NCBI GenBank assembly: GCA_964436745.1 | Contig: CAYTEC010000002.1 | Span: 6,287-55,738, forward strand | Direction: 5' to 3' | Origin: an uncultured Dehalococcoidia bacterium | GTDB taxonomy: Bacteria > Chloroflexota > Dehalococcoidia > Lucifugimonadales > UBA1127 | DNA: 49,452 nucleotides | Shown here: positions 47,015-49,452 of the stretch, piece after piece | Layout: each line of letters opens with the position of its first letter | Position numbering within the stretch: the stretch's first letter is position 1 | Program-made: the position numbers and the translations under genes | Notes under the pieces: generated by a model | What the model saw: the letters and a program-made list of their open reading frames with translations, nothing else | Databases searched by the model: none | Told to the model about the DNA's origin: nothing

Positions 47015-48399
47015 ATGGTTGAGACCTACGATGTCATAGTGATTGGCGGAGGCCCGTCAGGAGAGAACGTGGCAGGCCGAACCGCCGGCGGGGGGCTGAA
47101 GACGGTCCTCATCGAGGGGGAGCTGCTCGGCGGTGAGTGCGACTACTGGGCGTGCATGCCGAGCAAGGTGCTGCTGAGGCCTGGAGAAGCGTTGGCCGCC
47201 GCGAGGCGGGTTCCAGGCGCGCGGGAGGCATCGACCGGGACGATTGACCTGGAAGCCGTCCTAGCATGGCGTCGGTACATGACCCGAGACCACAGCGACG
47301 AAAGCCAGGTCGGCTGGGTGGCCTCAACGGGGTCCGACCTCATCAGGGGGCAGGCCCGACTCGACGGGCCGCGGAAGGTCGTCGTGGTCCAAGCGGACGG
47401 GTCGGAAAGGCAGCTGGAAGCAACGAAGGCAGTGGTTGTCGCTACCGGGTCTCGAAGCGTGATGCCGCCGATCCCCGGCCTGTCGGACGCTCGCCCGTGG
47501 GACAACAGGATTGCGACGTCCGTGGACACACCGCCGCGACGCCTCCTGGTGCTCGGCGGCGGCGTGGTGGGCTGCGAGCTCGCTCAGGCGTGGAGCTCCT
47601 TGGGCTCGACGGAGGTCACCATCATCGAGGCCCAACCCAACCTCCTGGCCACCTACGAGTCCTTTGCCGGGGAGATCCTGGGCAAGGTGTTCGAGGACCG
47701 GTTTGGCATCCGGGTACTCACAAGCAAGCGCGCCACCGAAGTACGCCGCCAGGGAGACGAGGTGACGGTGACGCTGGACGACGGGTCGACAGTCTCGGGC
47801 GACGAGATTCTGGTGGCCGTGGGGCGGCGAGCCCGGACGGACGATCTGGGCGCGTAGACCGTGGGCCTGGAGCCGGGGAGGCCCATAGAGGTGAACGACT
47901 GCAGGCCGTGGCCGTGCATGACGGCTGGCTCTACGCCGTGGGCGACGTGAACGGCCGCAACATGCAGACCTACATGGGCAAGTATCACGGTCGCATCGCG
48001 GGCGATCACATCAAGGGGAAGCCCGTGGCGGCGGTGGGTGACGCCTACGCTCCAAAGGTCGTCTTCACCGACCCACAGGCGGCCTCCGTGGGCCTATCCG
48101 AGGCGGAGGCCAGAAACGCCGGCCTCAGCGTGCGCACCGTGGAGTACGGCTACGGCTGGAGCGGCGGCGGGTCCATTCTGGGGTATGACACGGAGGGCAT
48201 GTGCAAGTGGGTCGTGGATGAGAGCGCGAAGGTGCTCGTTGGCGCGACGTTCGTCGGCCCCGGAGCGGGCGAGCAGATCCACGCCGCCACCATCGCGATC
48301 GCGGGGAAGGTGCCGCTGGACGTCCTCTGGCACGCGGTCCCGCCCTTCCCGACGATCAGCGAGTTCTGGCTGAGTTTCCTTCTGGAGTACGGCTACTAG
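47015..48399 (+). pseudogene. Dihydrolipoamide dehydrogenase/MerA-like flavoprotein disulfide reductase, disrupted
   Basis: YDVIVIGGGPSG, GGECDYWACMPSK, LGGGVVGCE. In-frame TAG at 47855-47857 and frameshift near 47899 before WLYAVGDVNG..VVFTDPQ..HAVPPFPT. Confidence 0.88.
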
Positions 48400-48536
48400 C
48401 CGGCAGGGACGGTCCAACACGGTAGCTACCGGCGGTCGCCGCGACCGAGGCCGGACCAGCCGCAGGACTCGCGACCGAGCTCGTGCTCGGCGTCCGCCCG
48501 CCGTCGTCGTGCGCAACGGCCACACCGGGTCTGCCC

Positions 48537-48565
48537 TTGTCGCGGGCCGGGATGGGGGATATACT
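48537..48565 (+). promoter_or_regulatory. Sigma70 promoter of the DUF4395 leader
   Basis: TTGTCG-N17-TATACT. Confidence 0.7.
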
Positions 48566-48574
48566 GGATTCGTT

Positions 48575-48631
48575 ATGTTGCTGACACCACTGTGCGCCTG
48601 TACGTGTGACCAAGGGAAGGCTATCGCGTAG
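48575..48631 (+). CDS. Putative near-leaderless Cys-containing leader peptide MLLTPLCACTCDQGKAIA
   Basis: ATG 9 nt after the -10 box. Cys codons at 48593, 48599 and 48605. TAG at 48629-48631. Confidence 0.5.
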   Translation: MLLTPLCACTCDQGKAIA

Positions 48632-48662
48632 CCCGGTTCGCAACGTGCCGCAACCGCGAATC

Positions 48663-48696
48663 GACCCTCCGTCAGCACATATCGGGGGGTCTTTTT
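48663..48696 (+). terminator. Intrinsic terminator inside the 5' leader of the DUF4395 gene (attenuator)
   Basis: GACCCTCCG-N11-CGGGGGGTC followed by TTTTT, about 25 nt before the DUF4395 start. Confidence 0.75.
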
Positions 48697-48721
48697 CATG
48701 CACGGTGCGCCAGGAGGAACG

Positions 48722-49282
48722 ATGAGCATTGACTCCAGCCCTGCAACGGTCGGTGCCCCGGCGGGCGGCGGCTTTCTGCGAGAGGTGTTCAGCTTCCCTC
48801 ACCCCGTGAACGAGTACGCGGCTCGCATGGTCGCGGGGATGGTGATGGCGCTGGCGCTGACCATCATCGTGTTCGACGTGCGGTGGCTCACGGCGGTCCT
48901 GGCATACGGGTTCCTGGCGCGCGTCCTCACCGGGCCCACCCTGAGCCCGATGGGCCTGCTGGCCACTCGCGTACTGGTGCCCCTGATCGGCAACCGGGAG
49001 AAGCCCGCGGCGGGGCCGCCCAAGCGGTTCGCGCAGACCATCGGCCTGCTCTTCTCGGGGAGCGCGCTGGCTCTCACGTACGGGTTCGGACTGCCGCAGG
49101 TTTCGGAGATCGTCTTGGGCGTACTGGTGCTCTTCGCTGGACTGGAGTCGATCCTGGCGTTCTGCGCCGGCTGCTTCGTGTTCGGCTACCTGATGCGGTG
49201 GGGCCTGGTGCCGGAGGACGTCTGCGAGCGCTGCGCCAACTGGTCCCCGGGGCAGACCCCCTCCGCCAGCGGCGCTCACTGA
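48722..49282 (+). CDS. DUF4395 family membrane protein
   Basis: FSFPHPVNEYAARMVAG, GPTLSPMG, GPPKRFAQTIG, LESILAFCAGC, PEDVCERC. AGGAGG RBS. Confidence 0.88.
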   Translation: MSIDSSPATVGAPAGGGFLREVFSFPHPVNEYAARMVAGMVMALALTIIVFDVRWLTAVLAYGFLARVLTGPTLSPMGLLATRVLVPLIGNREKPAAGPPKRFAQTIGLLFSGSALALTYGFGLPQVSEIVLGVLVLFAGLESILAFCAGCFVFGYLMRWGLVPEDVCERCANWSPGQTPSASGAH

Positions 49283-49300
49283 GGTGGCGGCGGGCCCCTG

Positions 49301-49363
49301 CCGTTCGTGGTGAGCCGTTCGTCTTTCCTCTCGGCAAGGATCAGGACAGGCTTGTCAAACCAC
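49301..49363. repeat. CCGTTCG-tagged REP-like palindrome with internal insertion
   Basis: CCGTTCGTGGTGAGC..CTTGTCAAACCAC matches the 22659/22733 unit but is interrupted by CGTTCGTCTTTCC..TCAGGACAG. Confidence 0.65.
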
Positions 49364-49452
49364 TGAGGCTCGACGCGGACGGCCCGACGAGAGCGCTGGC
49401 GTTCTTCGGGCGCTGAAGGGACCCTGGGCTGCGCAGAGCGATGTTCGGTCTG

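Follow-up and report, generated by a model that had tools for sequence, protein, structure and literature searches.

The question raised by this locus is whether a short open reading frame (ORF) with three cysteine codons, which lies upstream of a gene for a DUF4395 protein, controls the expression of this gene. The locus is situated near the end of a 49,452-nucleotide (nt) stretch of contig CAYTEC010000002.1 from an uncultured Dehalococcoidia bacterium, and in the following this whole stretch is called the window. The first-pass annotation had described here a promoter, an ATG 9 nt past its -10 box which opens an ORF for an 18-residue peptide with the motif CxCxC, two hairpins, an intrinsic terminator, a ribosome binding site and the DUF4395 gene, and all these parts are present in the sequence (Table 1). 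It had also proposed that together they form a cysteine attenuator which acts at the level of transcription on a near-leaderless leader peptide, and this proposal is supported by the conservation of the element, by a test of its reading frame and by the terminator. From the comparative sequence evidence we consider it probable that the element is a ribosome-mediated leader-peptide transcription attenuator sensing charged tRNA-Cys, with the start of transcription, the translation of the leader, the stalling of the ribosome and the direction of the response being deduced rather than observed.

The design of the leader was searched for with a composite pattern, which consists of a TANNNT box 4–11 nt before an ATG, GTG or TTG, an ORF of 6–35 codons containing C.?C, and a hairpin of -8 kcal/mol or lower that is followed by a run of four T, 35–100 nt past the stop codon. 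On both strands of the 1.97-Mb assembly this pattern occurs only once, namely at the locus in the window, and a relaxed scan of the same genome for cysteine leaders gave no convincing locus besides this one. For comparison we collected DUF4395 loci from genomes of the same order (27 of 61 carry the gene), from species-representative genomes (80 loci) and from metagenome contigs (80 loci); out of 185 loci, 158 unique upstream regions of at least 300 nt could be used. The pattern is found on the coding strand in 27 of these 158 regions and in none of their 158 reverse complements. The positives come from all three sources (order genomes 7/24, representatives 8/75, metagenomes 12/59) and, where they are named, all of them are Dehalococcoidia, Chloroflexota or SAR202. 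The suspected Chloroflexota origin of the window is borne out by its nearest relatives, which carry these labels. None of the DUF4395 loci from representative genomes labelled Actinomycetota, Acidimicrobiales, Solirubrobacterales and the like contains the composite pattern.

When the ORF is not demanded and only the sequence TGYNNNTGTA together with a terminator is searched for, again 27 of the 158 regions are found and none of the 158 reverse complements. Within those 27 regions an ORF running from start to stop exists in the cysteine frame in 26 cases and in the two other frames in 3 and 9 cases, respectively. The contrast between the strands together with the frame test leads us to conclude that the element is real and that it is read as codons.

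A multiple sequence alignment was built from 22 curated leaders of the 27; the remaining five (L032, L033, L035, L118 and L127) have a visibly different spacer and were omitted. Invariant in this alignment are two bases of the first cysteine codon (TG) and all three of the second (TGT). The check for cysteine codons and reading frame in orthologous leaders that had been suggested for this locus turned out in favour of the attenuator. About 12–15 nt past the cysteine codons the aligned leaders have a purine motif resembling GGAGGG, and across the family the arms of the terminator are mostly CCCUCG and CGAGGG. Most members have a TANNNT -10 box 6–10 nt before the start of the leader, and the T run begins 55–76 nt after the leader stop codon. 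The number of cysteine codons changes by whole codons, with CxC, CxCxC, CSCC, CCCFCC and CCCCCC all being present. Outside the cysteine codons and the following codon, which is a Thr codon or at least starts with A, the leader peptides share no conserved sequence, and they are between 9 and about 30 residues long. An RNAalifold analysis of the 22 leaders yielded the terminator as the sole conserved structure and no conserved 1:2 (anti-antiterminator) helix.

The second cysteine codon is UGU in all 22 aligned leaders, and the next base is A in 20 of them, mostly giving UGUAC. In the genome of the window, which has a GC content of 67.6%, TGT makes up 23.6% of the cysteine codons, yet UGU is used at this position. 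A possible cause of the preference for UGU is that wobble decoding is slower, or else there may be an RNA contact that we do not see.

These data also bear on the alternative named in the first pass, an unnamed riboswitch. A metabolite-binding riboswitch with the terminator as its expression platform would likewise appear as a conserved 5′ leader that closes in a terminator ahead of metabolic genes. However, a scan of 48300–48900 against Rfam gave no match in the leader, the sole match at E <= 10 being a P5 small RNA of 16.6 bits outside the leader, and the terminator is the only helix which RNAalifold finds conserved. Moreover, the conservation follows the reading frame, and the cysteine codons vary in number by whole codons. 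We therefore regard a riboswitch as extremely improbable.

The occurrence of the leader beyond DUF4395 was analyzed with a covariance model, R1, which was built from the 22 leaders and comprises 147 positions and 9 base pairs. Among 151 genomes of the order, R1 has matches at E <= 0.01 in 50. Full-length matches at E <= 1e-4 exist in 29 genomes, seven of which had supplied training sequences. At 28 of the 29 best loci there is a short ORF containing cysteine codons; at the remaining one, L261, the model matches in part, and nothing but the terminator is covered. Behind 18 of these 29 leaders the gene is DUF4395, recognized in 13 cases via Pfam and in five via a local hidden Markov model (alignment A1). 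Other leaders precede genes for rhodanese (3), PAPS reductase (2), TauE/SafE (1), an AhpC/TSA-like fragment (1), a RimK-like ATP-grasp protein (1) and a 469-residue protein that belongs to no Pfam family (1), and one of the loci ends at the edge of its contig. A single genome (L270 is among its loci) has four copies of the leader: the first stands before a Sulf_transp gene of the YeeE/YedE type, which is followed some 550 bp downstream by a gene for rhodanese, and the others precede a 468-residue protein, DUF4395, and Cys_Met_Meta_PP together with a homoserine O-acyltransferase (HTS). Cysteine synthase (TIGR01136) adjoins DUF4395 in six loci, downstream of it in L018 and upstream in the five others; two of the TIGR01136 scores are 361 and 345 bits (cut-off 344), and one is slightly below with 342 bits. 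As this gene set covers the uptake, activation and incorporation of sulfur, the leader would be expected to switch its genes on when cysteine runs short.

The gene set has a bearing on a further explanation, namely that the ORF is simply a small gene which has a terminator of its own, encodes a cysteine-rich peptide such as a metal- or redox-active micropeptide, and is located upstream of DUF4395 merely by position. The ORF is complete, comes with both promoter and terminator, and contains CxCxC. However, both sequence and length of the peptide (9 to about 30 residues) are unconserved apart from the cysteines and the next codon, and among the conserved features there are also nucleotides that are not translated and the pairing with the terminator arm. 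In addition, a sulfur or cysteine gene on the same strand always lies downstream of the element. We therefore hold this explanation to be very unlikely.

Several side observations were made on the loci of the regulon. A second type of leader is located between cysteine synthase and DUF4395 (L007, L008, L014, L017 and L031). Its short ORF with cysteine codons (for example ...LTCACI) begins within the stop region of cysteine synthase (ATGGTGGTAA overlap) and stops 1–3 codons past the cysteine codons. Behind it lies a GGGGG-loop-CCCCC hairpin that lacks a T run. This second type may be an intercistronic, translation-coupled variant. The proteins of 468–469 residues, for which there is no Pfam family, are encoded right behind cysteine leaders (L269:1718-3124 and L270:4629-6032) and are 71% identical to each other. 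In L269/L030 the gene lies immediately upstream of DUF4395, and in L003 and L046 a closely similar C-terminal coding sequence ends just before DUF4395. A protein atlas returned only clusters of hypothetical proteins with weak YncE/lactonase-like leads. The protein is likely to be secreted and to act as a partner of DUF4395.

In a number of DUF4395 loci labelled Actinomycetota a palindrome-like motif is found in place of the cysteine leader, a few tens of bases before the start codon (L050, L088, L089, L090, L094, L097, L099, L104, L109, L110 and others; examples are CCCGACTAAACTGGTCTGAGTT and CCGGTAAACTAnGTGGGT). This motif looks like a transcription factor operator.

A transcription attenuator of this kind needs an antiterminator, and the leader ORF contains a candidate in its 3′ part, the purine motif, which we call region 2. 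In 12 of 15 leaders the terminator 5′ arm finds no stronger partner than this motif within the whole leader. We carried out a permutation test in which the 39 nt following the cysteine codons of 24 leaders were paired with their own or with exchanged 5′ arms, after the near-duplicates L064, L166 and L118 had been dropped. The pairing energies with the leaders' own arms sum to -276.0 kcal/mol, compared with -233.8 +/- 10.2 kcal/mol for the permuted arms, and only 1 of 5000 permutations was as good. The cleanest single piece of evidence for the antiterminator is a triple change between two paralogous leaders that lie 3.4 kb apart in one genome: region 2 has changed from GUGAGG to GCGAGG and, together with it, the 5′ arm from CCUCAC to CCUCGC and the 3′ arm from GUGAGG to GCGAGG. 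Further matched variants of region 2 and the 5′ arm are AUGGGG:CCCCAU, GGGGU:ACCCC and GGGGC:GCCCC, and by eye we also spotted AAGGG with CCCUU (L134) and GUGAGGU with ACCUCAC (L009).

How the position of the ribosome could influence this pairing was calculated with a model of the nascent transcript, in which the RNA ends just past the 5′ arm and the ribosome masks the bases from 15 nt before to 13 nt after the first base of the codon in the A site. For 20 of 27 leaders the model has the 5′ arm sequestered upstream to a greater extent when the ribosome sits at the first cysteine codon than when it has reached the stop codon, and for two of the 27 the order is inverted. The mean difference in sequestration is 0.193, compared with -0.005 for controls with a dinucleotide-shuffled upstream part (n=24), and 0 of 30 control sets reach 0.193 (standard deviation of the control set means 0.044). 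For the leader in the window the modelled sequestration of the 5′ arm decreases from 0.66 at the first cysteine codon to 0.53 at the second and 0.22 at the third, and it is also 0.22 at the stop codon. Judged by this model, the permutation test and the gene set, the switch is most likely on at low cysteine, as in classical attenuation.

The following mechanism is proposed for the window. Transcription would begin a few bases ahead of the leader ATG (48575), and the 18-codon ORF would be translated without a leader or nearly so. With plentiful cysteine the ribosome would reach the TAG at 48629 and cover region 2 (48612–48620), so that the terminator (48663–48696) could form and most transcripts would stop before DUF4395. 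With Cys-tRNA being scarce, the ribosome would stall at the first cysteine codons (48593, 48599) and leave region 2 free to pair with the emerging 5′ arm of the terminator (CCCUCC). This pairing would delay the terminator, and RNA polymerase would continue into DUF4395.

A number of results count against the attenuator or against its operation in the window. The promoter was called with a consensus of the E. coli type. The equilibrium probability of the terminator is high in nearly every state of the ribosome mask and hence uninformative; with the terminator dominating at equilibrium, the decision must be kinetic. The nascent-transcript model sequesters the 5′ arm also without any ribosome (mean 0.59), and in this respect the modelled Chloroflexota leaders depart from the trp paradigm, in which a lack of translation leads to termination. 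Taken one by one, only 4 of 15 leaders have an antiterminator energy that clearly beats dinucleotide shuffles (fraction <0.02), because the leaders are rich in G, and as the leaders are kin, the figures from permutations and shuffles overstate their independence. In the window itself region 2 (AAGGGAAGG) is an imperfect partner for GACCCUCCG, with energies of -6.4 to -9.1 kcal/mol; the value of -9.1 kcal/mol equals the shuffle mean, and of 23 foreign arms, 12 are better partners for the window's segment past the cysteine codons than its own arm (-6.4 kcal/mol). The window may hold a switch that is weaker or in part degenerate, or one that relies on contacts we do not see.

Table 1. Positions of the leader elements and of the DUF4395 gene within the window
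Feature	Coordinates	Strand	Remarks
-35-like hexamer TTGTCG	48537..48542	+	from consensus scan; putative promoter element
-10-like hexamer TATACT	48560..48565	+	17 nt after TTGTCG; 9 nt before leader ATG
Leader peptide ORF MLLTPLCACTCDQGKAIA	48575..48631	+	18 codons and TAG at 48629-48631
Putative regulatory Cys codons TGC-GCC-TGT-ACG-TGT	48593..48607	+	codons 7, 9 and 11; TG of the first and TGT of the second invariant in the alignment
Purine-rich region 2 AAGGGAAGG	48612..48620	+	candidate antiterminator, proposed to pair with the terminator 5′ arm
Hairpin 1 GGCTA-TCGCG-TAGCC	48619..48633	+	contains the leader stop codon; in centroid fold
Hairpin 2 GGTTCGC...GCGAATC	48635..48662	+	in centroid fold
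Intrinsic terminator GACCCTCCG, 11-nt loop, CGGGGGGTC, TTTTT	48663..48696	+	9-bp GC-rich stem, -15.5 kcal/mol
Shine-Dalgarno sequence AGGAGG of the DUF4395 gene	48712..48717	+	from sequence
DUF4395 gene	48722..49282	+	186 aa, ATG at 48722; PF14340, Pfam E = 1e-32; helical membrane protein

The promoter listed in Table 1 is the only sigma70-like site (TTGTCG-17 nt-TATACT) in the region 47900–49452, where shuffled sequences lead one to expect 0.2. No Shine-Dalgarno sequence precedes the leader ATG, and from the position of the -10 box the 5′ untranslated region of the leader mRNA would be about 0–3 nt long. The cysteine codons TGC (48593), TGT (48599) and TGT (48605) make up 3 of the 18 leader codons. 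Region 2 is found at the position which the GGAGGG-like motif occupies in the family. The string GGCTATCGC-TAG of hairpin 1 is also present in L018, and hairpin 2 is not kept across the leader family. A standard terminator scan, which allows loops of up to 8 nt, passes over the terminator because of its 11-nt loop. The folding stability of the whole leader is ordinary (z = -1.18), with 27 of 200 shuffles folding equally well or better.

Natural variants of the locus are available from contigs of four other metagenome runs, which represent near-identical strains. In three of them the leader is identical within their coverage, and in the fourth there is a single change in the leader, 48656 G>T, which disrupts the inner pair of hairpin 2. 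A metagenome scan for close relatives gave a best match of 75% protein identity. Upstream of the -35 box, in the segment 48498–48510, two of the four runs show five substitutions (48498, 48501, 48504, 48507 and 48510) with the leader unchanged. They fall on each third base of a (CGN)5 repeat and are all synonymous in a frame that runs past the stop codon of the upstream oxidoreductase gene; this frame has no start codon.

According to the first-pass annotation the switch consisted of two competing folds, with the 5′ end of the transcript being complementary to the loop of the terminator. This complementarity does exist: the 5′ end (48571–48585) pairs with the loop region (48671–48683) at -15.5 kcal/mol, none of 300 shuffles of the 5′ segment alone reach this value, and a fully paired 11-nt loop should be incompatible with a closed stem. 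Such a competition could even invert the logic, with the switch being on when translation is fast, since the 5′ end would be free only as long as there is no ribosome close to the start. However, dinucleotide shuffling of the entire leader, with free choice of the partner, gives an equally good duplex in 14.9% of 1000 shuffles, and the pairing is absent in 14 of 14 other leaders (shuffle fractions 0.29–0.99). Being neither conserved nor beyond chance, the two folds did not hold up as the switch, and because of the shuffle rate and the absence in the other leaders we treat the pairing as chance or at most as a lineage-specific extra. The inverse logic is also disfavoured by the sulfur-assimilation genes under the same type of leader, which argue for the on state at low cysteine. 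In our view it is highly improbable that this pairing operates the switch.

The closest experimentally proven system is Ms5788A of M. smegmatis, a leaderless poly-Cys ORF that controls Ms5788-cysA2-Ms5790 (Canestrari et al. 2020, bioRxiv 10.1101/834739). As described in the available part of this preprint, the stalled ribosome unmasks a Shine-Dalgarno sequence and the control is thus translational, and no transcription termination is reported there. The link drawn in the first pass between DUF4395 genes and mycobacterial poly-Cys leaders proved right. DUF4395 is present in 54 of 61 genomes of a Mycobacteriaceae-like family, and 25 of 30 DUF4395 loci of this family have an upstream ORF ending in ...RRRAVDLCRLGGCCCxCC. 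Two of them consist of a GTG ORF of 29–30 codons, DUF4395 (about 90 nt past the ORF stop in L220), rhodanese and DUF1416, and their leaders score 54.0 and 54.9 bits (cut-off 45) with NCBIfam NF042933, the 'Ms5788A family Cys-rich leader peptide'. These DUF4395-rhodanese-DUF1416 loci closely match the published Ms5788 operon. NF042933 and NF042934 gave no match at E <= 10 with six Chloroflexota leader peptides of 20–24 residues, a set to which the 18-residue peptide of the window does not belong. A pattern of eight cysteine codons and a stop codon matched in 15 of 401 Actinomycetes genomes, in none of them within 1.5 kb of DUF4395.

With a proven system on the same gene family acting in this way, as far as the accessible text of the preprint (bioRxiv 10.1101/834739) goes, the Chloroflexota leader might also attenuate translation: the cysteine tract would pair with the Shine-Dalgarno region of DUF4395, a stalled ribosome would unmask it, and the terminator would be incidental or secondary. 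The minimum-free-energy fold of 48574–48730 indeed pairs the region of the cysteine codons with a stretch just before the Shine-Dalgarno sequence. In none of the 27 leaders, however, does the duplex of the leader ORF with the 60 nt past the terminator beat dinucleotide shuffles; in the window it amounts to -25.5 versus a shuffle mean of -30.7 (fraction 0.91), and the lowest fraction among the 27 leaders is 0.065. Against this explanation there is also the GC-rich hairpin with its T run, which constantly follows the stop codon at 55–76 nt as the sole conserved structure. Translational control of this type is very unlikely. AGGAGG of the window's DUF4395 gene has no specific complementarity to the leader ORF. 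Sequestration of the Shine-Dalgarno sequence by the cysteine tract was rejected for the 27 leaders on their duplex energies relative to shuffles.

Compared with Ms5788A and Rv0815A, which belong to the mycobacterial 'Cys ribulon', the transcription attenuator proposed here has in common a leaderless or near-leaderless short ORF with cysteine codons, sensing by ribosome stalling (the start and the stalling being predictions in our case), DUF4395 as a target, and several sulfur loci per genome that carry such leaders. The leaderless start of Ms5788A may have its likeness in the window, where the -10 box 9 nt before the ATG and the lack of a Shine-Dalgarno sequence are compatible with a leader of 0–3 nt. 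The two systems differ in that the mycobacterial poly-Cys tract pairs with the Shine-Dalgarno sequence, whereas the Chloroflexota leaders have an intrinsic terminator and no complementarity between the cysteine tract and the Shine-Dalgarno sequence. Furthermore, the mycobacterial peptide ends in a C-terminal run of cysteines, whereas the peptide of the window has a spaced CxCxC in its middle (codons 7–11 of 18).

The classical transcription attenuators with leader peptides are trpL, hisL, pheL, leuL, thrL and ilvL of the Proteobacteria. The Chloroflexota leaders resemble them in having an ORF rich in the codons to be sensed, an intrinsic terminator and a proposed antiterminator which depends on the position of the ribosome and shares the 5′ arm, and in both cases the genes behind the leader act in the pathway of the amino acid that is, or would be, sensed. 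They differ in that cysteine would be sensed, that the ORF begins within about 3 nt of the predicted 5′ end without a Shine-Dalgarno sequence, that the host is a member of the Chloroflexota and that no conserved region 1:2 helix was found by RNAalifold.

Two other predictions for cysteine are found in the literature. In Rhodobacterales, uORFC-8-2 upstream of cysS is a predicted attenuator with tandem cysteine codons 14–15 in the first stem (Brewer et al. 2021, PMC8632094). To judge from the parts of this article on uORFC-8-2, it shares with our leader the upstream ORF with cysteine codons, the terminal U run or terminator stem and the predicted on state at scarce Cys-tRNA, both being predictions; the difference lies in the alpha-proteobacterial cysS on the one hand and the Chloroflexota DUF4395 and sulfur-assimilation genes with CxC(xC) on the other. 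For Actinobacteria, putative leader peptides that carry cysteine runs before cys or cbs operons have been proposed (Seliverstov et al. 2005, PMC1262725). The relevant section of that study describes them as having no terminators and proposes a dependence on Rho, whereas the Chloroflexota family has clear intrinsic terminators. Our search of the literature on attenuation by cysteine leader peptides, evaluated mainly from titles and the opening lines of abstracts, returned no description of the Chloroflexota element.

The DUF4395 protein has four invariant cysteines in its alignment columns, which form an FCxGC motif in a predicted helix and a CxxC motif near the C-terminus. Its AlphaFold model has a pLDDT of 81.2 and a pTM of 0.71; a Foldseek comparison of the fold with PDB gave no match at E <= 0.001 (best E 0.49). 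NCBIfam has no family which covers DUF4395, and a full-text literature search on DUF4395 found no paper on its regulation. In the window the gene is monocistronic, since the next gene is convergent. Between DUF4395 and this convergent gene, which encodes an Lhr-like helicase, there is a short run of N (L001 about 2150–2165, just beyond the end of the window). Upstream of the leader a gene for a pyridine nucleotide-disulfide oxidoreductase (47015–48399, + strand) is split across two reading frames, with Pyr_redox_2 in 47015–47857 and the dimerisation domain in 47863–48396. The split points to a frameshift near 47855, arising either from a pseudogene or from an assembly error.

Within the searches made, the family of leaders is apparently undescribed, and its predicted mechanism is of a known kind; what appears to be new on the basis of these sequences are the family itself, the phylum, the leaderless start and the gene set. 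To our knowledge, cysteine has long been without a textbook attenuator. The mycobacterial case is proven but translational, and the terminator-type case of Rhodobacterales cysS is only predicted. The family presented here is a predicted clean cysteine attenuator of the terminator type, with natural covariation, in a phylum whose regulation at the RNA level has been little studied.

In our estimation the chances are balanced that marine Chloroflexota of the SAR202 type run a whole sulfur-assimilation regulon on a leaderless leader with cysteine codons and a terminator. If so, the regulon would comprise the YeeE-type transporter, rhodanese, PAPS reductase, TauE, enzymes of the MetY/MetA type, cysteine synthase, DUF4395 and the putatively secreted 468-residue protein. 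The mycobacterial 'Cys ribulon' would then have a counterpart at the level of transcription, without detectable similarity of the peptides. Two phyla would then have put DUF4395 under the control of cysteine leaders by different mechanisms, which would mark DUF4395 as a core, uncharacterised component of sulfur acquisition. The finding would annotate an unrecognised regulon in abundant deep-ocean bacteria of the SAR202 type and provide a sequence signature for locating sulfur genes in metagenome-assembled genomes. It would also link DUF4395 and the putatively secreted 468-residue protein to the response to cysteine starvation and thereby make their function testable.

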